A DNA stretch of 64,000 nucleotides from a virus, in IMG/VR virus record IMGVR_UViG_3300045988_167063. One strand, given 5' to 3'. The translations under genes and the position numbers were made by a program. Shown here in pieces: positions 741-11,703 of this stretch. Every line of letters starts with the position of its first letter. Positions within the stretch are counted from its first letter, which is position 1. The notes beneath the pieces were generated by a model. It was not told where the DNA came from. It saw nothing but the letters and a program-made list of their open reading frames with translations, and did not search any database.

Positions 741-1118
741 ATGTGTGAATTATATCACAGAAAAATTAAATGGAATAAAAATTTTGACAAATCTTATAAT
801 GAAATGTTGTCAACTAAACCATATATTCAATATAGTCAACATTTTTCGCAAAGATTTAAAGAAAAAGGCTTTAATTTAAGACTTTTTGAACAAGCGTTAT
901 ATTCTATTAAATACCAACATAAAGGTTATTTATTTGAAGTTGGAGTAGAAAATAATATCCCTTGCAAGTTTGTTATTAGAACAAAATATGATGACAGCCG
1001 AGATATTGTGTTTGTTTTAAAGAAAATCAATAAAAGTGTTTTGTTAATAACGGCTTGGCTCAACGAAAATGACGATAATCATTATACTTTAGATAGGAGT
1101 AAATATATATGCAATTAA
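741..1118 (+). CDS. hypothetical protein (weak DUF4258-like pattern)
   Basis: ATG at 741 preceded by AGAGGTG. ORF-track start 681 lies inside the promoter. HFSQRFKEKGF ... VLLITAW loosely resembles DUF4258 small toxin-like proteins. Confidence 0.55.
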   Translation: MCELYHRKIKWNKNFDKSYNEMLSTKPYIQYSQHFSQRFKEKGFNLRLFEQALYSIKYQHKGYLFEVGVENNIPCKFVIRTKYDDSRDIVFVLKKINKSVLLITAWLNENDDNHYTLDRSKYICN

Positions 1119-3328
1119 AAGTAAAGGCAAAAGTAATTAGAGAAATTTATCATAATGATAATTTTTATATTCTTGCTTTATCGCCTATGAAAATATATGA
1201 CAATCTTGAAATTACTCAATATGGCACATTTACTTGCAAAGGTGAATTATCAATGTTGACAGTTGGGCAGGAATATGACCTTGTTATTGAACCTATAAGC
1301 AATGATAAATATGGCACTTGCTATAAAGTGGTTGATGTGCCGAGTTTAAAAGTCGAGGATTTAAGTGACGATGACGAACTTGAAATATTAAGAACAATAA
1401 CCACAAACTCTCAAGCCGACTATGTTCATAAAGCATATCCAAATTTTATAAGGCTTATTTTAAATGGCGAAGAAGATAAAATAGATATTAAAAACATCTA
1501 TAATGTAGGTGAAACAAGGCTTAAAGTTTACAAAAGACTTATAAATGAAAAATTTAGATATTATTATCTTATGAAACAGACAAAAGAATATAAAATTTCA
1601 ATGTCGGACTGTAAACTTTTATTGAGCAAATACAAAACAATAGAGGAATGTGTAAAGAAAATCAATAATACTCCATATTTCATTCTTATGGAGGTGTTAG
1701 GGCGAACATTCGAGAATATTGACAAGATGATACTTGATATTCAACCTGACCTAAAAGTGTCTAAACAACGCTGTGAGGCTCTTATAATAGGTGTTCTGCG
1801 TAGGAATGAAGTTGACGGTTCAACAAGGCTTTATGCAAACGATTTATTCTATTATATTAAAGAGGAATATGACGCTAAAGAATTGTTGCCTATGCTCAAA
1901 GATGTTGCAGTTGAAAGTGATTTAATTTATTATGATGAAAAAACTAAAGATTTATCAATAATGTCAACTTATTTTGCTGAATGTAAAATAGCAGACTTTG
2001 TAAAAAGTAAAATACAAAATAGTAAAAAACTTGATATTGATTATACTAAATATAAAAACATTGATAATTTTATTATGAGTGATATGCAGTTAAATGCTTT
2101 AAAGGTTTTTTGCGAAAGTAATATTAGTATTTTGGCAGGCTTTAGCGGCGGAGGGAAGACAACAGCTATAAAAGGACTTGTTTCTCTTATGGAAGATAAT
2201 CATTTGACCTATACTTTACTCTCTCCAACAGGTAAAGCCTCTAAAGTATTATCTGAAAGTACAGGCAGAAAAGCCTACACTATTCATAAGCGTTGTTTTT
2301 CAGGCTCTATTGATACAGATGTAGTAATTGTTGATGAATGTGGTATGGTGTCACTTGATGTATTTTGTATGTTATTATCAGCAATTCAAAATGATAATGC
2401 AAGAATAGTATTAGTAGGCGACCCTGCACAGTTATCCTCAATCGGCTTGTCTAAAATTTATGATGATTTGATTAAATCAAATAAAGTACCTATGACAATG
2501 CTTACTGAAGTATTTAGATATAAAAGTAACGGCTCTCTTTTTGTTGCAACAAATATTCGTCAAGGCAAAAATTTCTTTGATGATGATTTTGTAAAACATA
2601 ATGAAAATACAAACGAATATACTGTGAGCGATAATTATAAGTTCATTCAAACAGATGAAGTGCTTGAAACTGTTGTTAATGAATATAAAAAGCTTTTACA
2701 AAAAGGCATAAAAAAAGAAAACATTATGGTATTAAGTCCATTCAATGTTGGTTTGTTTGGCACTTATGCAATAAATAACGAAATCCAACAAATGATTAAC
2801 CCTATTTTACCAAATGATAAAATACAGTCAAGAACAGTTAATAAAACAAAGATTGTATTTAAAGAGGGCGATTTAGTAATAAACACCAAAAATGATTATG
2901 AAGCAGTTAAAGCCGATAGCTATTATGAAAATAAAGATGTCGAGGGCATTTCAGAGTCAGATTATGAAACCACAGCAATAGTAAATGGGCAAATGGGTAT
3001 AATTCGAGAAGTAGTTGACAAAGGCTTGATAATTCAATTTGATGAGGAAATGGTTTATATGAACCGAAATAAACTTAATCATCTACTTTTGGGTTATGCA
3101 ATAAGTTGTCACAAGTCACAAGGTTCAACTATTGATTATAGTATTAACATTATTACAAACGCACATAAAAATATGTTGTCAAGAGGTTTATTATATGTTG
3201 CAACTACAAGGTGTAGAAAATCACACATAGATATAGGTGACGAAAGTGCTTTTCAATATGCGTTATCTGTATGTGACAATGATTTAAGAAAAACTTGGCT
3301 TTTAGATTTAATGACTGAAGAAAAATAA
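1109..3328 (+). CDS. RecD-like SF1 DNA helicase
   Basis: Walker A GFSGGGKTT, Walker B VVIVDECGMV, VLVGDPAQLSS, and C-terminal YAISCHKSQGS motif typical of RecD/RecD2 helicases. Confidence 0.85.
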   Translation: MQLKVKAKVIREIYHNDNFYILALSPMKIYDNLEITQYGTFTCKGELSMLTVGQEYDLVIEPISNDKYGTCYKVVDVPSLKVEDLSDDDELEILRTITTNSQADYVHKAYPNFIRLILNGEEDKIDIKNIYNVGETRLKVYKRLINEKFRYYYLMKQTKEYKISMSDCKLLLSKYKTIEECVKKINNTPYFILMEVLGRTFENIDKMILDIQPDLKVSKQRCEALIIGVLRRNEVDGSTRLYANDLFYYIKEEYDAKELLPMLKDVAVESDLIYYDEKTKDLSIMSTYFAECKIADFVKSKIQNSKKLDIDYTKYKNIDNFIMSDMQLNALKVFCESNISILAGFSGGGKTTAIKGLVSLMEDNHLTYTLLSPTGKASKVLSESTGRKAYTIHKRCFSGSIDTDVVIVDECGMVSLDVFCMLLSAIQNDNARIVLVGDPAQLSSIGLSKIYDDLIKSNKVPMTMLTEVFRYKSNGSLFVATNIRQGKNFFDDDFVKHNENTNEYTVSDNYKFIQTDEVLETVVNEYKKLLQKGIKKENIMVLSPFNVGLFGTYAINNEIQQMINPILPNDKIQSRTVNKTKIVFKEGDLVINTKNDYEAVKADSYYENKDVEGISESDYETTAIVNGQMGIIREVVDKGLIIQFDEEMVYMNRNKLNHLLLGYAISCHKSQGSTIDYSINIITNAHKNMLSRGLLYVATTRCRKSHIDIGDESAFQYALSVCDNDLRKTWLLDLMTEEK

Positions 3329-3340
3329 TAAAAAAAATAC

Positions 3341-3369
3341 TTGACAAATACTAAACTTTTTGATATAAT
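3341..3369 (+). promoter_or_regulatory. sigma70-type promoter
   Basis: TTGACA 3341-3346, 17-nt spacer, TATAAT 3364-3369 preceded by TG. Confidence 0.6.
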
Positions 3370-3378
3370 ACAGATGTT

Positions 3379-4071
3379 GTGAGAAATAGAAAGGATGATT
3401 TTATTAAACAGAAAAGAATTATGCAAATACTTATTGGCATTTTAGCCATAATGTGTTTGGTATTTTATGGTGAAAAATTTGCATTGGCACAGCAAACAGA
3501 AACAACGATAAATGATAATAATGTTATTATCACAAATCAGCAAACAGAAATTGATAATCTAAAAAAAGAAAATCAAAAGCTAAAAGAACAGGTCAAGGCA
3601 CTAAAAAAAGAAAATTCAAAACTTAAAAACTCGCAACAAAAGAAAGACAAAACAAAATTGAAATCTTATAAAGTGCCGAAAAATATGTATTTTAAATCTT
3701 ATACTAACTACAAATGTTTAAGTCGTTCTTCAGCACAATGGAAATTACAAAAAAAGGCTTATACAGATAAAAATGGTTTAAGAAAAATTGGTGACGATTA
3801 CCTTGTTGCAATGGGTAGCTATTATACAAAGCATTTAGGTGATAGATTTAAAATTACCTTATCGACAGGAAAATCGTTTACAGTTAGAATATGTGATTTT
3901 AAAGCTAATAGCGACACTAATTCAACACATCAATACACAGCAAATGGTTGTATGATTGAGTTTTATGTTGATAGCAACCTAAACTCTAAAGCAAGACGAA
4001 TGGGCGATATATCCTATATCAAAGGATTTAAAGGCAATATTACTAAAGTAGAAAAAATTATAAAGGAGTAA
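3379..4071 (+). CDS. membrane-anchored coiled-coil protein with C-terminal 3D/RlpA-like (double-psi barrel-like) domain
   Basis: N-terminal hydrophobic helix ILIGILAIMCLVFYG, lysine-rich coiled coil, C-terminal GDRFKITLSTGKSFTVRICD pattern. Start uncertain: GTG 3379 or ATG 3421. Confidence 0.5.
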   Translation: MRNRKDDFIKQKRIMQILIGILAIMCLVFYGEKFALAQQTETTINDNNVIITNQQTEIDNLKKENQKLKEQVKALKKENSKLKNSQQKKDKTKLKSYKVPKNMYFKSYTNYKCLSRSSAQWKLQKKAYTDKNGLRKIGDDYLVAMGSYYTKHLGDRFKITLSTGKSFTVRICDFKANSDTNSTHQYTANGCMIEFYVDSNLNSKARRMGDISYIKGFKGNITKVEKIIKE

Positions 4072-4077
4072 AAAAAT

Positions 4078-4386
4078 ATGAAAAAGATTTTTATATCTCA
4101 ACCAATGAAAGATAAAACAACAGAACAAATCGAAAAAGAAAGAGAACAAGCATTTTCTGAATTGCATAAATTATTTGGAGATGATTTTGAAATTATTGAT
4201 AGTGTTTTTGATTTTGAAAATGTAGAAAATGTAAACAAAGGTCTTTATTATCTTTCAAAATCTCTTGAATTACTTTCAACAGCAGATTGTGCAGTCTTTT
4301 TAAGTGGTTGGGATAAGGCTCGTGGCTGTTTAATTGAAAAAGAATGTTGTGACAAATACGGAATTGAAACCATTATATTAAATTAA
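4078..4386 (+). CDS. DUF4406 / nucleoside 2-deoxyribosyltransferase-like small protein
   Basis: KIFISQPM N-terminus and ADCAVFLSGWDKARGCLIEKECC C-terminal pattern typical of this phage family. RBS GGAG upstream. Confidence 0.5.
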   Translation: MKKIFISQPMKDKTTEQIEKEREQAFSELHKLFGDDFEIIDSVFDFENVENVNKGLYYLSKSLELLSTADCAVFLSGWDKARGCLIEKECCDKYGIETIILN

Positions 4387-4397
4387 GGAGTGATTTA

Positions 4398-4898
4398 ATG
4401 GCAAATTTATATGAAATTGACACAAAACTTGTCAATGCAATCGAATGTGGTTGTGATGTTGAAACAGGTGAGTTTATTGACGAAAAAGGCATAGAAGATT
4501 TATATATGGAACTCAATAATAAAATTGAGGGAATTGCTTTATATCGTAAGAACACCGAAAGTGACATTGAGGCTATTGATAAGGAAATTGAAGCCTTAAA
4601 GAAACGCAAAGAAATCAAACAAAACAAACTTAAAGGCTTGACAAATTATTTGAGCAGTTATCTTTTAAGTAAGGATATTAAGAAGTTTGAAACACCTAAA
4701 GTGCTTATTAAATTCCGTAAATCAACACAAGTTGAAATTCTTGATGAAAGTAAATTGCCTCAAGAATTTGTACGAAAGATTGAAAAGGTCGAATATAAGC
4801 CTGATAAGAAAGAAATTAAGAACTACTTAAAGACAAATCCTGATAAGATTATTGAGGGTTGTAGACTTGTTGAAAATCAAAATATTTCAATTATATAA
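4398..4898 (+). CDS. Siphovirus Gp157-like protein
   Basis: MANLYEI...IDEKGIEDLYMELNNKIEGIALYRKNTESDIEAIDKEIEALKKRK coiled-coil layout characteristic of the Gp157 family. AAGGAG RBS. Confidence 0.65.
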   Translation: MANLYEIDTKLVNAIECGCDVETGEFIDEKGIEDLYMELNNKIEGIALYRKNTESDIEAIDKEIEALKKRKEIKQNKLKGLTNYLSSYLLSKDIKKFETPKVLIKFRKSTQVEILDESKLPQEFVRKIEKVEYKPDKKEIKNYLKTNPDKIIEGCRLVENQNISII

Positions 4899-4907
4899 GG
4901 TGATTTA

Positions 4908-5114
4908 ATGAATAAATATATTGTCTTTTTTAATGACATTCAATTTAGTAACTTGTACTACTATAAAGGTGTAAAATATAGAATATCAAGTGAAGATAAA
5001 GATAACTATATTTTAAATCAATATATTGAGCCTTTTATAGTATCAAAAAAATTTGAAAATAAAGATTATTCGGTAGGTGATATTATAGTTGAAAGTAACA
5101 GATATGATTACTAA
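4908..5114 (+). CDS. hypothetical protein
   Basis: ORF with AAGGTG RBS, co-oriented and tightly packed. Confidence 0.5.
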   Translation: MNKYIVFFNDIQFSNLYYYKGVKYRISSEDKDNYILNQYIEPFIVSKKFENKDYSVGDIIVESNRYDY

Positions 5115-5736
5115 TGTAGATGTTTATGGATTTGAAAACGCTATTAAGTGTTCCAAATATCCTATGAGTGTTGATATTTCAACTCTTAATACAGATATAA
5201 CAAATACTGTCAAGAAACTTGGAAATGCTCAAAAAGGAAGCGGACACGATAATTTTTTAAAAGGTATTATTGTGCAATTTGATTTAACAATGACACCTAA
5301 AATGTCGATTGAACTTGAACGCTATCATTTTATTGATTTTATTTCAAGTCAATCAACAATGCACCGAATTACAAAATTTGATTTAGATAAAGCATATATT
5401 GAATATGTTGATAAAAGAATTATTGATATTATGAAAGATAAAGTTAATGAATATAATAAGTTAGTGGAACTCACTAAAGACAAATCTTTTTATGATAATA
5501 ACAAATGGGATATTGAAAATGAAAAAGAATATAAAGATGTTCTAAACAATTTATATCTTGAAATTCTTTACTCTAATCCTTGTGGCTTTAAACTTACAGC
5601 AGGAATGACAACAAATTATCAACAGTTAAAAACAATATATTATCAAAGAAAAAATCATAAACTCCCTGAATGGCGAACATTTTGTGAGTGGATAGAAACA
5701 TTACCATACTTTAAAGAAATTTGTTTGGAGGACTAA
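5089..5736 (+). CDS. ThyX-fold homolog with degenerate signature
   Basis: SGHDNFLKGIIVQFDL...LERYHFIDFISSQSTMH parallels ThyX HGHETPFEH..F.V....RHRxxSxxxxSxRY, but RHR is RYH and SGRY is STMH. Start is TTG 5089 or ATG 5104. Confidence 0.45.
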   Translation: MKVTDMITNVDVYGFENAIKCSKYPMSVDISTLNTDITNTVKKLGNAQKGSGHDNFLKGIIVQFDLTMTPKMSIELERYHFIDFISSQSTMHRITKFDLDKAYIEYVDKRIIDIMKDKVNEYNKLVELTKDKSFYDNNKWDIENEKEYKDVLNNLYLEILYSNPCGFKLTAGMTTNYQQLKTIYYQRKNHKLPEWRTFCEWIETLPYFKEICLED

Positions 5737-6001: not shown

Positions 6002-6160
6002 ATGAATAAGAAAGAAATTTGCGAAACAGCATATAACCTCATTTGTGGACTCGGTGATATTGATGATGAAGAATTTATAAATACAATTATCAATGCAATC
6101 TATAATAGAGAGGAATATACAGTTGAAGAAATTTTGGAAGAAGTTGAAATCGAAGATTAA
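6002..6160 (+). CDS. small acidic hypothetical protein (52 aa)
   Basis: Hand-translated ATG 6002 to TAA 6160 with AAGGAG RBS. Below the ORF-track size cutoff. Confidence 0.45.
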   Translation: MNKKEICETAYNLICGLGDIDDEEFINTIINAIYNREEYTVEEILEEVEIED

Positions 6161-6819: not shown

Positions 6820-7276
6820 GAAAATTTATCTTGCAGGTGGTATGCAAAATTTAACAGTTCAAGAACAAAAACAATGGCGAAAAAAAGTCATAGACTCTCT
6901 AAAAGACGAATTCAGAATACTTGAAATTGTTGACCCAACCAATTATTATAATTTTGAGCGTAAGATTTATGATACCGAAAGAGAAGTTAAGGCTTGGGAT
7001 ATTCACGAAGTTAAAACAAGTGACTTAATTATTGTTTATTTTAATGACCCACAATCTATCGGTACTGCTCAAGAATTACAATGTGCAAATGATTTTGATA
7101 TACCTGTTCTTGGCATTTATGAAAATGCCCATAATAAAGAACTTCAAATGTTAGGCAAACCTACTGAAAAACTCCACTCTTGGCTCGTTGACTCTTGTAA
7201 TAAGATTTTTGACGATATACCAAGCTGTGTTGAATATATAAAAGAATTTTATTTAGACGGAAGAAGGTTTGTATAA
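6800..7276 (+). CDS. nucleoside 2-deoxyribosyltransferase-like protein
   Basis: IYLAGGM N-terminal motif and IGTAQELQCANDFDIPVLG resemble the NDT family. Exact start unclear. Confidence 0.55.
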   Translation: MVVFIIRKIYLAGGMQNLTVQEQKQWRKKVIDSLKDEFRILEIVDPTNYYNFERKIYDTEREVKAWDIHEVKTSDLIIVYFNDPQSIGTAQELQCANDFDIPVLGIYENAHNKELQMLGKPTEKLHSWLVDSCNKIFDDIPSCVEYIKEFYLDGRRFV

Positions 7277-7277
7277 T

Positions 7278-8447
7278 ATGCAAGTAATTAAGAGAGATGC
7301 CTCTCTTGAAGATTTCAACAAACAAAAAATTGTAATTGCTATTATTTCTGCAATGGAAGAAGGCAATGGTATTAAAGAAGATATTGCTCAAAAAATTGCA
7401 GATGAAATAGAAGAAAAATACTCAAAAAGCGACACTCAAGAAATTGAGATAAACGACATTGAACTTGATGTTTTTAATGCTTTGATTAGTCATAAACAGC
7501 GACTTTCAGCAAGAGCATACGAAGGTTATCGTAGCATTAGAGAATTTCAAAGAGATATTGACAATACTACTGACGGAGAATTATTAACACTTCTTTCAAA
7601 TAAAAATGATTATTGGAAAACTGAAAATTCTAATAAAAATGCAACTCTTGTAACCACTCAAAGAGATTATATGGCAGGAATTGTCAGTAAAGATTTAAGC
7701 GAAAGATTTTTATTGCCACCCGATGTAGTACAGGCACATAAAGAAGGAGTTATCCATTTCCACGATATTGACTACTTCGCTCAATCTGCCCTCCATAATT
7801 GTTGCCTTATCAATCTTCAAGATATGCTACAAAATGGAACAGTAATAAATAATGTTAAAATTGATAAACCTCACAGATTTTTGACTGCTTGTACTATTGC
7901 GACACAAGCTATAACTGCTGTGGCAAGCTCTGAATATGGTGGTTGCACTATAACATTAACAGCACTTGCTCCTTTTGTAAGAGATAGTTATGATATTTAT
8001 TATAACAAATATAAAGACAGAGGATTTAGTGATGAACAATCAAAAGAATATGCAACACAAGACCTAAAAAAAGAGGTCGAAGATGGTGTGCAAACCTTTA
8101 ATTATCAAATCAATTCAATGTCAACAACAAATGGGCAAGCACCTTTTATTACAATCTTTATGTATCTTAATGAAACCGAAGAATATAAAGATGAACTTGC
8201 AATGATTATTGAGGAATTTCTTAATCAACGCATAAAGGGAATAAAAAATAGAAAAGGTGTTTATGTAACTCAAGCATTTCCTAAACTCATATATGCTCTT
8301 GAAGAAGATAATATTACAGAAGATAGCAAATATTGGTATCTTACTGAATTATCTGCTAAATGTACTGCTAAAAGAATGGTGCCTGATTACATAAGTGAAA
8401 AAGTGATGAGAAAACTTAAAGAGGGAAATTGTTTTCCTTCAATGGGT
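7278..8447 (+). CDS. nrdD: anaerobic ribonucleoside-triphosphate reductase NrdD, exon 1
   Basis: ATP-cone start MQVIKRDASLEDFNKQKI. Frame ends ...CFPSMG, then a stop follows 6 codons later. SMG joins CRSFL of exon 2 to give the conserved SMGCRSFL. Confidence 0.85.
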
Positions 8448-8759
8448 GAACTATTGCTCATTTAAAACTATGTGAACTCATAAATATGAGGTGTATAATC
8501 TACGAATAGTAATTGTAGGAAATGACAACTAAAGATTATGCTAATAGGGAATATTCAAATTTGAACAATCCTATGCCAAGATTTAATATAATTATTAAAT
8601 AAGGTTCAACGACTATCGAAAACATAATATAAGAGAAACACTTATATGAAGAAGTGAGTAGAGTACATTCAAGGTGAAACTCCTTGCTTGGAAGTGCATA
8701 GTATTTAATATTTGGTAATAGAATATTAAGTAAAGATATAGTCTAAATAGTAATATTTG
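8448..8759 (+). mobile_element. group I intron (ORF-less) in nrdD
   Basis: Follows exon U (ggT) and ends in G. Contains GGTTCAACGACTATCG and AAGATATAGTC, matching conserved group I core elements as in T4 td and Tetrahymena. Confidence 0.7.
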
Positions 8760-9455
8760 TGTAGAAGTTTTCTTGCTCCTTTTAAAGACACCGAAAATAT
8801 CTCAAATGCGAAAAATTATAAAGACGGAGAATATAAATTCTACGGAAGACTAAATAAAGGGGTTGTAACAATCAATTTACCCGATGTAGCTTTGTCTGCT
8901 GACGGAAACATTGATGAATTTTGGAAGATTTTTGACAAAAGGCTTGAACTTTGTAGAAAAGCATTATATTGTAGATATTTAAAGCTAAAAGGAACTTTGT
9001 CTGATGTTGCTCCTATTCTTTGGCAAGATGGAGCATTAGCAAGGCTAAAACAAGGCGAAACTATTGATAAACTTTTAACAGGTGGATATTCAAGTATTTC
9101 ACTCGGTTATGCAGGTCTTTATGAATGTGTAACTTGCTTGACACATAAGCCTTATATAGACAAAGAGTCTAAAGAACTTGGCTTAAAGATAATGCAATAT
9201 ATGAATGACAAATGCGAAGAATGGGATAAAAGTGATAATATTGGCTATTCAATTTATGGTAGTCCTATTGAGTCAACTACTTATAGTTTTGCCAAACATT
9301 TAAAACAGCGTTTTGGTGATGATGTATTTATAAAAATTGACGGTAGAGATAGAGATTACATTACTAATAGCTATCATTATCCTGTATTTGAGCCGATTGA
9401 CGCCTTTAGTAAATTAAAGTTTGAAAGTGAATTTCAAGCATTATCAACAGGTGGT
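8760..9455 (+). CDS. nrdD: NrdD exon 2
   Basis: Starts CRSFLAPF. The ORF-track TTG start is the intron end. Ends ...ALSTGG before read-through into a stop. Confidence 0.8.
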
Positions 9456-10436
9456 TATTTCTACATACCTTGAGTAGCCACCTTAAACTATGTGAACTGT
9501 TTGCTTAACAGGTGTAGATATTTAATCTGCTAACGGTGGACTCTTTTAACAAAAGACAATACCGTGCCAAGCCTATTATTTATTTATAGGAAGGTGTATC
9601 GACTAATTAGTAGGGTTGAGATAAGCACAATCCGAAGTGCATAGGGTGTAAAGCAGAGTTGTCCTGCTACGCTAAGATATAGTCAGAAGGGAAAATAAAA
9701 TGTATAAATGTGATTTTTGTGGAAGAGAAAGTTTTAAAAAAATCAGATATGGTGGGTATACAGTATGTTCAAAACATATGCACCAAATGAATAAATACGG
9801 AAAAGTTTTAGATAATATTCCAAGAACAAATAATGACTTAAGTGATTTTGTCATAAAAGACAACCTTGTTTATTTTAATGTTTATAACCAAAAGAATATT
9901 AAAATAGGTGAATTTTTTATTGATAAATGTGATTTAGATAAAGTAAGATGGCACAAATGGAGAATAAGCAGTGGGCATATTGTGACAGGTCAACCTGCTA
10001 AAAAGCAACAAAAAGATGTAGGTCATATCATTTTAGGAACAAATCCAAGTGTTGATACTGTAATAGACCATAAAGACGGAAATCCTATGAATAATACAAG
10101 GGAAAATTTAAGAATTTGCCCTCAAAGCAAAAATGTATTAAATAAAAGATATATAAGTAATAATACAAGTAATTTTATAGGGGTTACTGCTGTAAAAGAT
10201 AGAAATGCTTATGACCCCGAAATTAGAATAAACTATAAAAGATGTCATTTAGGATATGAAAAAGATAAAAAACACGCTGTATACAAAAGATATATAGCCG
10301 AGGAATTACTCTTTGGTGAATATGTTAATGAAGAAGAACATAATAAAAAGAAAAACTTTACAAATGATATTCCACAAAACATCAAAAATGAATTGAAAGA
10401 AAAAACAATTCAAAAATTAAAAGCAAAAAACCTTTG
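9456..10436 (+). mobile_element. group I intron with HNH homing endonuclease ORF in nrdD
   Basis: 5' region shares TAAACTATGTGAACT, GCCAAG, GAAGTGCATAG and AAGATATAGTC with the first intron. Ends in G before GCA ATA AGT (AISYVEVPN). Confidence 0.65.
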
Positions 10437-10443
10437 GCAATAA
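9700..10443 (+). CDS. HNH homing endonuclease (intron-encoded)
   Basis: N-terminal Cys motif CDFCG...CSKH, HNH motif DHKDGNPMNNTRENLRICPQSKN, followed by an AP2-like FIGVT segment. Confidence 0.8.
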   Translation: MYKCDFCGRESFKKIRYGGYTVCSKHMHQMNKYGKVLDNIPRTNNDLSDFVIKDNLVYFNVYNQKNIKIGEFFIDKCDLDKVRWHKWRISSGHIVTGQPAKKQQKDVGHIILGTNPSVDTVIDHKDGNPMNNTRENLRICPQSKNVLNKRYISNNTSNFIGVTAVKDRNAYDPEIRINYKRCHLGYEKDKKHAVYKRYIAEELLFGEYVNEEEHNKKKNFTNDIPQNIKNELKEKTIQKLKAKNLWQ

Positions 10444-10685
10444 GTTATGTAGAAGTGCCAAATATGCAAAATAATATTTCTGCCGTTTTATCCGTAATTA
10501 AATACATTTATGACAATATTATGTATGCAGAACTTAACACGAAAAGTGATTATTGTCAAGTTTGTGGATATGACGGTGAAATTCAAATAGTCAAAGACGA
10601 GAACACAGGAAAATTGATTTGGAAATGCCCTAAATGCGGTAATACAAATCAAGACAAAATGAATGTGGCTCGGAGGACTTGTGGT
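10437..10685 (+). CDS. nrdD: NrdD exon 3
   Basis: AISYVEVPN..., Zn-ribbon CQVCG...CPKCG, ends ARRTCG (glycyl-radical motif RxCG) at ggT. Confidence 0.75.
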
Positions 10686-11634
10686 AGAAACTATATTGCC
10701 ACAATATAAAATAATTAAAATTCACGGGAAATCTAAACACAAAATGTGCAAGACAATCGTGAGCCAAGTCTATAAACATAATCTAAAGGGTGACAAAAAT
10801 ATATACAATAAATAAAGTTAAAACATATCCAAACCACGATATTAAACAAGTAAAAATTGATAATAAAATATATTATGTGTGTAATGTTTGTGGCAGATTG
10901 ATGTCAAAAAAAATTTCTGCAAACAAAAAAGTATGGTGTAATAAACACTATAAACAATTAAAAAAATATGGCAAACCAATAGATATAAACCCACGAACAA
11001 TTCTTGATAAAAACGAAATAAATGTTGTCGGAGATATTGCATATATCAATATTTACAATGACAAATGCGATGTAATAGCCATTACGACTATAAACGCAGA
11101 TGATGTAGATAAAGTTAAAAATACAAAGTGGAAATTATCAAATTCGGGTTATATTATGAATACACCAAAATTTAAAGGTTCAAACATACATTTATCACGA
11201 AGAATATTAGGTACAAATGATTTTGTAGACCACATAAACGGAGATAAATTGAATAATTGCAGAAATAATTTAAGAATAGTAACAAAATCACAAAATCAGA
11301 TGAATGTGAATTATAAAGGCGTATGCAAAACAAAATCCAATAAATTTTATGCATATATTAAAATAAATCAAAAACTATTAAATCTCGGTACTTATGTCGA
11401 TGAAGAAGAAACCTTATATGCAAGGTGGTATGCAGAAACTTTATTGTTTAAAGAATATCGTTATCCTAAAGAAGAACCAAATATTCTTGAAAACAGAAAA
11501 GAACAAATAAAAGATTATGTAAATAGAAAGGTGCAACGACTATAATAATTAACATTGCTCAACCAAAAAAATGGAGAGAATGTAAGGCATAGTCTACTCC
11601 CTCAATAAATATCGGGAAACCGAGGGTATAAAGG
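10686..11634 (+). mobile_element. group I intron with HNH homing endonuclease ORF in nrdD glycyl-radical motif
   Basis: Interrupts RRTCG|YIG. Contains GAGCCAAGTC and GGCATAGTCTACTCC core-like elements. Terminal G at 11634. Confidence 0.7.
10790..11545 (+). CDS. HNH homing endonuclease (intron-encoded), paralog of 9700..10443
   Basis: Same architecture: CNVCG...CNKHYKQLKKYGK, DHINGDKLNNCRNNLRIVTKSQN, then YKGV AP2-like segment. Confidence 0.8.
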   Translation: MTKIYTINKVKTYPNHDIKQVKIDNKIYYVCNVCGRLMSKKISANKKVWCNKHYKQLKKYGKPIDINPRTILDKNEINVVGDIAYINIYNDKCDVIAITTINADDVDKVKNTKWKLSNSGYIMNTPKFKGSNIHLSRRILGTNDFVDHINGDKLNNCRNNLRIVTKSQNQMNVNYKGVCKTKSNKFYAYIKINQKLLNLGTYVDEEETLYARWYAETLLFKEYRYPKEEPNILENRKEQIKDYVNRKVQRL

Positions 11635-11703
11635 TATATAGGAACTAATTTTTGGAACGAAGGTAGAACACAAGAGATAAAAGAGCGTGTATTACACCTT
11701 TAA
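11635..11703 (+). CDS. nrdD: NrdD exon 4 (C-terminal glycyl-radical tail)
   Basis: Hand translation gives YIGTNFWNEGRTQEIKERVLHL*. With exon 3 this gives RRTCGYIG...NEGR..EI.ERV.H, the canonical NrdD C-terminus. Confidence 0.8.
   Translation, partial: YIGTNFWNEGRTQEIKERVLHL

Follow-up and report, generated by a model that had tools for sequence, protein, structure and literature searches.

The record IMGVR_UViG_3300045988_167063 of IMG/VR, analysed here as one stretch of 64,000 nucleotides (nt; the window), contains between positions 7278 and 11703 the gene nrdD of an anaerobic (class III) ribonucleotide reductase (RNR) in four pieces. The question raised by this locus is whether the gene is restored by splicing of three group I introns, whether it encodes a reductase made of two separate polypeptides, or whether it is a dead gene. 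The first of these answers was suggested by a sequence-only reading of the window, and it is the one preferred here: with a probability of about 90%, three group I introns are excised from the nrdD precursor to give a NrdD of 727 amino acids (aa), self-splicing being predicted from the sequence. The coordinates which that reading had given for nrdD were all found to be correct on re-reading. A list of the features is shown in Table 1.

The joined nrdD product

The four nrdD exons have lengths of 1170, 696, 249 and 69 nt, all divisible by 3, and all three inserts interrupt the gene in codon phase 0. Joining at 8447/8760, 9455/10437 and 10685/11635 results in an open reading frame (ORF) of 727 aa with the C-terminus KERVLHL followed by the stop, and with the junction peptides CFPSMG^CRSFL, ALSTGG^AISYVEVPN and ARRTCG^YIGTNFW (^ marks the break). 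The joined product is matched from end to end by the NCBIfam NrdD equivalog NF006732 (841 bits; cutoff 657), contains the Pfam domains ATP-cone, NRDD and Gly_radical, and aligns with PDB entry 9d3x (E = 5e-121) and with T4 NrdD, 1h78 (E = 7e-108). The alignment to both structures is gapless over all junctions (MG^CRSFL, TGG^xISYVE.P and RRTC(G)^Y.G). Gly705, Cys391, the NCC motif and the CxxC...CxxC of the joined NrdD align with the matching T4 residues, and the features of a class III NrdD are all present (equivalog match, RxCGY, active-site cysteines and Zn-ribbon cysteines). The claim that four in-frame pieces make up a 727-aa anaerobic RNR is borne out by the equivalog match and the gapless structure alignment.

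Junction 1 is located directly before Cys391, which is aligned to T4 Cys290, and junction 3 directly after the glycine aligned to T4 Gly580 (1h78 is the G580A mutant). From general knowledge of the T4 enzyme, we take these residues to be the thiyl-radical cysteine and the glycyl-radical glycine. One intron had been said to split the glycyl-radical motif itself, and junction 3, which reads RRTC(G)^Y and follows Gly705, does so.

In comparison with the nrdD of the related contig L055, exons 1+2 have a dN/dS of 0.07 and exon 3 one of 0.007, values which indicate strong purifying selection on the nrdD exons. A contiguous nrdD elsewhere, which would have suggested that the pieces are decayed fragments, was searched for by tblastn; no second nrdD was found within the 64-kb window of the ~105-kb genome.

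Group I character of the inserts

The three inserts are 312, 981 and 949 nt long, the first two being multiples of 3 and the third not. The terminal exon base is T (U in the RNA) at 8447, 9455 and 10685, and each insert closes with G, at 8759, 10436 and 11634 (omega G in all three), which confirms at all three sites the U before each break and the G ending each insert that were noticed initially. At each site a P1 of 7 base pairs (bp) ending in U.G is formed, AATGGGT/GCTCATT, AGGTGGT/GCCACCT and TTGTGGT/GCCACAA for introns 1, 2 and 3, respectively, and P1 covaries with the exon in two relatives (L072 and L002). Because Rfam gave sub-threshold local matches only, the intron structures were modelled by hand and then tested on the sequences of relatives. 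In the hand-built models all three inserts have a P3-P9 core with the P/Q/R/S elements.

Intron 1 was aligned with four relatives, namely the same-site intron of L145, the introns inserted at aa162 of nrdD in L145 and L055, and an intron of Bacillus phage Goe26. In this alignment 94.9% of the cells are paired, as opposed to 34-49% with the partners slid by 1-3 columns. Changes on both sides were seen in 22 pairs, and the observed score was reached by 0 of 500 shuffles. Exchanges in P3 among the relatives are AU/CG/UA and GC/UA, the P4-P5-P6/P6a domain holds the GCCAAG junction, and most local hairpins were recovered in an unconstrained minimum free energy fold. The fold of intron 1 is thus supported by covariation with relatives. 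P3 of introns 1 and 2 was fixed by the Goe26 intron (CTTGGTG/CGCCAAG) together with compact introns in which the motif abuts P4; an exact 14-mer scan of IMG/VR, which gave 119 loci, mostly by chance, contributed about 12 real introns that helped to settle it. Another candidate for P3 of intron 1, ATTATG/CATAAT right after P7, was rejected; the Goe26 and aa162 introns covary at CTATGTG/TGCATAG, and one strand of ATTATG/CATAAT belongs to X2. An nhmmer search with a profile of the intron 1 family recovered intron 1 but not intron 2, and gave only weak signals (E = 9e-4 to 0.6) for the three minus-strand cores described at the end.

The fold of intron 3 is likewise supported by covariation. In the comparison with L072 and Enterocloster phage CB473P1, pairing is found in 96.1% of the cells, against 32-46% with slid partners, and both-side changes occur in 11 pairs, including P1 pairs that track exon changes. 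The P7'-P9 module of this intron (~11583-11635) is ~90-96% identical to 134 phage records, mostly from Staphylococcus, Listeria, Enterococcus and Bacillus phages. The segment of Staphylococcus phage Romulus (DNA polymerase region), which is ~90% identical to it, lies within a group I-like core.

According to the models, a single family does not accommodate all three introns: 1 and 2 are related to each other, whereas the ribozyme of intron 3 differs from them in structure. The motifs described earlier as shared by all inserts are indeed common to introns 1 and 2, which alone contain AAACTATGTGAACT, GAAGTGCATAG and AAGATATAGTC, but intron 3 has just GCCAAG and ATAGTC in common with them, and the full 15-mer TAAACTATGTGAACT is restricted to intron 2. 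Introns 1 and 2 have P3, X1, X2, P4-P7, P7.2 and P8 in common and, judged by their helix order, would be related IA-type ribozymes resembling T4 sunY and the Goe26 intron; the pair of hairpins X1/X2 between P3 and J3/4 appears unusual. Between P7 and P3', both P7.1 and P7.2 are found in intron 1, only P7.2 in intron 2 and neither in intron 3, which places intron 3 outside the sunY/Twort-type IA subgroup. The assignment of all three inserts to group I, made at the outset without database searches, is supported by P1 with its U.G, the terminal G, the P3-P9 cores, covariation in introns 1 and 3, and the intact spliced NrdD.

Intron 2 and its remote 3' splice site

In the relatives of intron 2 (L055, L072 and L145) X2 shows compensatory changes, and one pair of P3 is improved. 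Two long-range contacts are candidates for bringing its distant 3' end to the core. One is the P9.0 listed in Table 1. The other is suggested by intron positions 9457-9471 (intron nt 2-16), which are complementary to 10442-10456 (exon 3 +6 to +20) in 14 of 15 pairs, including one G.U; this was matched by 3 of 5000 shuffles, and the segments may form an extended P10-like pairing with exon 3. The GAAGG strand of the candidate P9.0 is also the ribosome-binding site of the ORF in intron 2, so that splicing of the intron and translation of the ORF may compete.

The 9-mer TGTAGAAGT is found at 8760-8768, the start of exon 2, and again at 10447-10455, 11 nt into exon 3, and its complement lies at the 5' end of intron 2. 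A shared 9-mer occurs in ~0.7% of random 30-mer pairs drawn from coding sequence. The repeat may have been left behind when the related introns 1 and 2 spread within the gene. In a milder variant of the two-piece reading discussed below, nrdD may have served as the site of this spread, with introns 1 and 2 as paralogs that have TGTAGAAGT in both 3' flanks, and paralogous HNH genes may have been inserted into different loops of ribozymes that are not related to each other.

Alternative readings

Several results weigh against the splicing of three group I introns. At the gathering score of Rfam RF00028 (50 bits) none of the three introns was found (0/3; best local match 30.2 bits). No group I match was obtained at the Rfam gathering threshold in the window or in 7 related loci, nor in a 5.2-kb scan by E-value. 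Short-range local matches to RF00028 fall on P4-P5-P6-P7 and P7'-P9, with 30.2 + 12.3 bits for intron 1, and a sub-threshold match of 16.9 bits was found for intron 2; the Rfam scan that had been suggested as a check gave local matches for introns 1 and 2, but nothing at the gathering score. Because the 7 related intron loci also stay below gathering, the RF00028 model seems to be insensitive to this AT-rich phage type. The 3' splice site of intron 2 falls within the HNH reading frame, ~750 nt past the core, and neither P9.0 nor the extended P10 of this intron gained covariation support in the relatives examined, which are invariant in those segments. In the search for nrdG, the ORFs of 90 aa or more in the 64-kb window were scanned for CxxxCxxC, and none contained it; NrdG of the host could serve as activase instead. 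Finally, the human-gut 'Jug' jumbo phages, in which nrdD lies in four fragments amid group I introns and endonuclease genes, yielded no splice reads between the '230-aa' and '91-aa' nrdD fragments (PMC12880540).

The alternative that survives best is nevertheless an unlikely one. It states that introns 1 and 3 splice and that the insert at site 2, group I by ancestry, is spliced poorly or not at all. NrdD would then consist of two pieces, a catalytic body of 622 aa and a separately translated Zn-ribbon/glycyl-radical module of ~100 aa (exons 3+4). Translation of the module would restart near the HNH stop, and the module would serve the catalytic body in trans, in the manner of an exchangeable radical cofactor, comparable to GrcA/YfiD of pyruvate formate-lyase. 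The 3' splice site, which falls within the HNH ORF at a distance of ~750 nt from the core, the in-frame TTG (10434) and ATG (10464) near the HNH stop (10441-10443), and the missing splice reads of the Jug phages are in line with this view. It is opposed by intron 2 itself, whose IA core is complete, whose 7-bp P1 contains U.G and whose terminal G restores the frame and TGG^AISY, and also by exon 3, which is not preceded by a Shine-Dalgarno sequence. The same layout with a remote 3' splice site is found in T4 sunY, which self-splices. A protein search with the 91-aa ORF of exon 3 for stand-alone glycyl-radical domains returned mostly short NrdD C-terminal proteins, which were rejected as gene-calling artefacts. 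Of the three contexts inspected, one had a gap of N, one a frameshift of 1 nt and one a nonsense mutation, in ordinary nrdD genes of bacteria; the short C-terminal ORFs in the databases are thus broken genes or assembly gaps and do not speak for a separate module.

Still less probable is a decaying, dead nrdD which was broken by free-standing HNH genes and is not spliced. Gene callers do annotate separate fragments, and the result of the nrdG search would fit a dead gene; the dN/dS values of 0.07 and 0.007, however, effectively exclude it. Moreover, the four pieces are in phase with all residues aligned to catalytic positions intact, fragments 2-4 have no plausible start signals, the inserts hold covarying ribozyme structure, and many independent gut contigs have kept the same architecture.

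Inteins or group II introns are refuted by the in-frame stops and the group I cores: the lengths of inserts 1 and 2 are divisible by 3, and an in-frame insert in relatives (HN^C, see below) has sub-threshold Intein_splicing and LAGLIDADG_3 matches, but translation in frame runs into a stop 18-24 nt after each 5' junction, the length of insert 3 is not divisible by 3, and the inserts revealed neither a Hint domain nor a group II domain V nor a reverse transcriptase, while the P/Q/R/S elements of group I are present.

Proposed splicing and homing

According to the preferred reading of three group I introns, nrdD would be transcribed as a single precursor of ~4.4 kb. P1 would form between the internal guide sequence of each intron and the 7 bases at the end of the exon, which places U.G at the cleavage site, and the terminal G would dock in the guanosine pocket of P7. 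The introns would fold and excise themselves by two-step guanosine-initiated transesterification, and ligation of the four exons would give an mRNA for a normal 727-aa class III RNR. In intron 2 the remote 3' splice site would probably be returned to the core by the long-range P9.0 together with the pairing of the 5' end with exon 3. During co-infection, the HNH proteins may nick or cut intron-less nrdD alleles, and repair would then copy the intron into such an allele. The three insertion sites are located at aligned catalytic motifs, i.e., before the equivalent of T4 Cys290, at TGG^, and after the glycyl-radical glycine.

HNH endonuclease genes

Introns 2 and 3 each contain an ORF for a HNH protein. 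The Shine-Dalgarno-like GAAGGG is located 8 nt upstream of the ORF in intron 2, and the final codons and the stop of the ORF in intron 3 overlap P6a, P6 and P7. Both proteins score above the cutoff of Pfam HNH_3 (24.8), with 26.5 bits for intron 2 and 30.1 bits for intron 3, and match the HNH endonuclease family PHROG 99 (E = 2e-21 and 5e-24, in the same order). The two ORFs contain intact DH...N...N motifs, VIDHKDGNPMNN and FVDHINGDKLNN, and DH..N..NN..NLR, present in both (DHKDGNxxNN in intron 2), aligns to I-HmuI (PDB 1u3e); the likeness to I-HmuI is confined to the catalytic motif (E = 0.03 to 0.3). The proteins are predicted to be I-HmuI-like homing endonucleases. They are 38% identical to each other over 208 aa (E = 1e-35), and with this identity and both scores above the HNH_3 cutoff, their description as paralogous HNH endonucleases holds. 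The location of paralogous ORFs in non-equivalent places of different ribozymes points to ORF mobility independent of the ribozyme. The protein of intron 3 is 62% identical to that of the same-site intron of Enterocloster phage CB473P1, with the alignment beginning at residue 29, and a protein identical to that of intron 2 is encoded on at least 20 gut-metagenome contigs.

Relatives and insertion sites

Over 20.4 kb, the window matches the human-gut metagenome contig ERZ913473 k127_55354 (105,046 bp) at 100% identity, and there are several independent assemblies of ~105 kb. The portal protein is only ~35% identical to that of the nearest cultured relatives, Enterocloster phages. Genes for Holin_SPP1 and Sipho_Gp157 are present in this ~105-kb phage.

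In 76 of 80 IMG/VR relatives nrdD is uninterrupted, and these genes define the empty insertion sites. The interrupted genes differ in their sets of inserts. L055 has an intron at aa162, the intron at site 2, and a 258-nt intron without ORF 1 nt downstream of site 3; L072 has an in-frame insert at HN^C and inserts at sites 2 and 3; L145 has inserts at aa162, site 1 and site 2, after which the contig ends; in L188, which lacks the intron at site 1, the insert at site 2 and the beginning of that at site 3 are present. The ORF-less intron family of L055 (10024-10281) occupies the same site in L004, L042 and L073 (GGTT^...G^AT). It has its own P1, and it shares a nearly identical P7'-P9 module with intron 3. 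The insert of ~300 codons in L072 (6526-7437) lies in frame between the Asn and the first Cys of NCC, which aligns with T4 Cys79, and is also found in L003 and L004. Its sub-threshold matches to Intein_splicing and LAGLIDADG_3 make an intein probable, and with it this nrdD clade has a fifth insertion site. Introns thus occupy four of the sites and a probable intein the other; all lie at conserved active-site motifs.

Eight contigs with the identical intron 2 protein were compared, of which six have inserts at sites 1, 2 and 3 and two at aa162, site 2 and site 3. The flanking DNA among these contigs is ~99% identical, falling to 94% beside the swapped introns, a pattern expected of homing with co-conversion. 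Together with the presence/absence polymorphism of the introns, this drop indirectly supports site-specific nicking or cleavage of intron-less alleles by the HNH proteins. In L209 and L214, which are ~99% identical to the window (compared with window positions 7763-8822), an aa162 intron with a HNH ORF replaces the intron at site 1. Alleles without the site 1 intron (L214, L209 and L188) read GGC^TGTCGC, with C at -1, and those with the intron GGT^TGTAGA. Because the intron-less alleles differ at these positions, the U of P1 and the partner of P10 travel with the intron.

In the Enterocloster phage CB473P1 (L002, OP172755.1; 2977-6107) the deposited nrdD CDS (2977-5124) stops at the site 3 intron. 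The ORF of this intron is labelled 'hypothetical protein', and the last exon of 22 codons (6042-6107) is unannotated. About 1 kb downstream of nrdD, at 7034-7113 (minus), the same genome has a skipping-rope RNA (RF02924, 65.5 bits). A RecD-like helicase has 1090 aa with a LAGLIDADG_3 match in L209 (127-3399) and 739 aa in the window (1109-3328), probably an intein polymorphism in a second gene.

Comparison with known systems

T4 carries its intron (sunY, with I-TevII) in the same host gene, nrdD. T4 sunY, read from the T4 genome, and introns 1 and 2 have the helix order P7-P7.1/P7.2-P3'-P8-P7' in common and lack P2; with intron 2, sunY also shares a 3' splice site remote from a compact core, with an endonuclease ORF and a P9.2-like hairpin in between. 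The T4 intron site, QAYE^YEVNT, corresponds to about residue 275 here and matches none of the three sites. T4 has one intron with a GIY-YIG endonuclease, whereas here three introns, HNH endonucleases and the extra X1/X2 are found. The sequence-only reading had called three introns in one gene unusual, which is correct relative to the single T4 intron at its different site, but published genes with several introns precede this one.

The closest sequence relative of intron 1 is located upstream of polA in the spounavirus Goe26 (66.5% over 240 nt). Both introns have P3, X1, X2, P4-P7 and the GAGTAGAGTACA motif. Goe26 and Romulus (Herelleviridae) differ from the phage described here in host gene and phage lineage.

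Among 16 phage genomes with split RNR genes, nrdD was the gene most frequently split (6/16), and nrdE contains two introns in Twort and three introns plus an intein in Brochothrix phage A9 (PMC3653736). As here, several group I introns, some with HNH ORFs, lie beside catalytic residues in Twort and A9; their genes are class Ib nrdE, whereas here a class III nrdD has a population-level repertoire of five sites. For nrdD of the Jug phages, RNA-seq supports some of the junctions (PMC12880540, 2026). The '230-aa' and '91-aa' fragments resemble exons 2 and 3 in size, although the phages are unrelated, and the Jug genomes are intron-dense, like the window. An origin of the window from a Jug phage was considered and rejected on the basis of genome size: Jug phages are Bacteroides phages of 360-400 kb, whereas the genome studied here has ~105 kb and is most similar to Enterocloster phages.

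The phenomenon is already known, since multi-intron reductase genes of phages have been published, including a nrdD in four fragments, and the current understanding of introns and class III reductases is not changed by the present locus. It is a clean and heavily invaded case in which selfish elements saturate one essential gene and near-identical genomes carry different combinations of them. The locus offers material for studies of homing and co-conversion in natural gut phage populations, as well as HNH endonucleases whose targets are defined and new ribozymes of a compact IA type. It is also of value for annotation: gene callers and the Rfam gathering threshold miss such introns, and a truncated nrdD is reported, as in CB473P1.

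Table 1. Location of the nrdD exons, introns, predicted intron helices and HNH endonuclease ORFs in the window
Feature	Position (strand)	Remarks
nrdD exon 1	7278..8447 (+)	aa 1-390; ATP-cone and N-terminal part of the barrel; last residues CFPSMG; from ORF list, domain matches and structure alignment
nrdD exon 2	8760..9455 (+)	aa 391-622; first residue Cys391, last residues ALSTGG
nrdD exon 3	10437..10685 (+)	aa 623-705; Zn-ribbon cysteines; last residue is the glycyl-radical Gly in RRTCG
nrdD exon 4	11635..11703 (+)	aa 706-727, YIGTNFWNEGRTQEIKERVLHL, then stop
Intron 1	8448..8759 (+)	312 nt, no ORF; IA-type group I by model
Intron 1, P1	8441-8447/8456-8462	AATGGGU/GCUCAUU
Intron 1, P3	8468-8474/8695-8701	CUAUGUG/UGCAUAG
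Intron 1, X1	8477-8490	extra hairpin
Intron 1, X2	8493-8541	extra hairpin
Intron 1, P4	8544-8549/8569-8574	
Intron 1, P6a	8581-8600	
Intron 1, P7	8611-8616/8738-8743	GACUAU/AUAGUC
Intron 1, P7.1	8627-8647	
Intron 1, P7.2	8670-8686	
Intron 1, P8	8702-8732	11 bp
Intron 1, P9	8745-8758	
Intron 1, terminal G	8759	directly after P9
Intron 2	9456..10436 (+)	981 nt; IA-type by model, kin of intron 1
Intron 2, ribozyme core	9456-9690	~235 nt
Intron 2, P1	9449-9455/9477-9483	
Intron 2, P3	9488-9494/9638-9644	
Intron 2, X1	9497-9511	
Intron 2, X2	9514-9530	
Intron 2, P4	9533-9538/9560-9565	
Intron 2, P6a	9572-9590	
Intron 2, P7	9601-9605/9680-9684	
Intron 2, P7.2	9613-9633	
Intron 2, P8	9646-9672	
Intron 2, P9.0	9686-9690/10431-10435	candidate long-range pairing, GAAGG/CCUUU
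Intron 2, P9.2-like hairpin	10390-10411	predicted
Intron 2, terminal G	10436	
Intron 2, HNH ORF	9700..10443 (+)	247 aa; in the 3' extension; stop 7 nt into exon 3
Intron 3	10686..11634 (+)	949 nt; compact group I type by model, without P2, P7.1 and P7.2
Intron 3, P1	10679-10685/10698-10704	
Intron 3, P10	10691-10696/11636-11641	
Intron 3, P3	10712-10717/11546-11551	
Intron 3, P4	10722-10726/10758-10762	
Intron 3, P6a	10769-10783/11513-11527	15 bp, closes over the ORF
Intron 3, P7	11538-11543/11589-11594	
Intron 3, P8	11552-11583	
Intron 3, P9	11599-11626	GAAA loop
Intron 3, terminal G	11634	
Intron 3, HNH ORF	10790..11545 (+)	251 aa from GTG 10790 (putative start); in the P6 loop

Other group I-like cores in the window

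At least six group I-like cores are present in the 64-kb window, none of which is reported at the Rfam gathering threshold. One is located on the minus strand at ~25000-24690 (GCCAAG, GGTTCACAGACTATCGAAAA, GAAGTGAGTAGAGTA, AAATATAGTC), between two halves of a tape-measure gene. The ORFs around it are 25719-24946, 24663-23545 and 23365-19970; the upstream half matches PhageMin_Tail, and an ORF of 372 aa follows the core. A further core at ~56350-56050 (minus) consists of GGTTTAACGACTA ... AGAGATAGTC, followed by a hairpin with a GAAA loop. Together with an endonuclease ORF of the type NUMOD4+HNH_3, it lies between two large ORFs to which no function was assigned (58746-56917, 56836-56219 and 56002-55073), and the locus is probably another intron-split gene. 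At ~38700-38400 (minus) a core with GCCAAG, GGTTAAACGACTATC and GAAGAAATAGTC is found downstream of a 415-aa DUF559/zinc-finger ORF; the ORFs in its vicinity are 40829-40038, 40153-38906 and 38359-37400.

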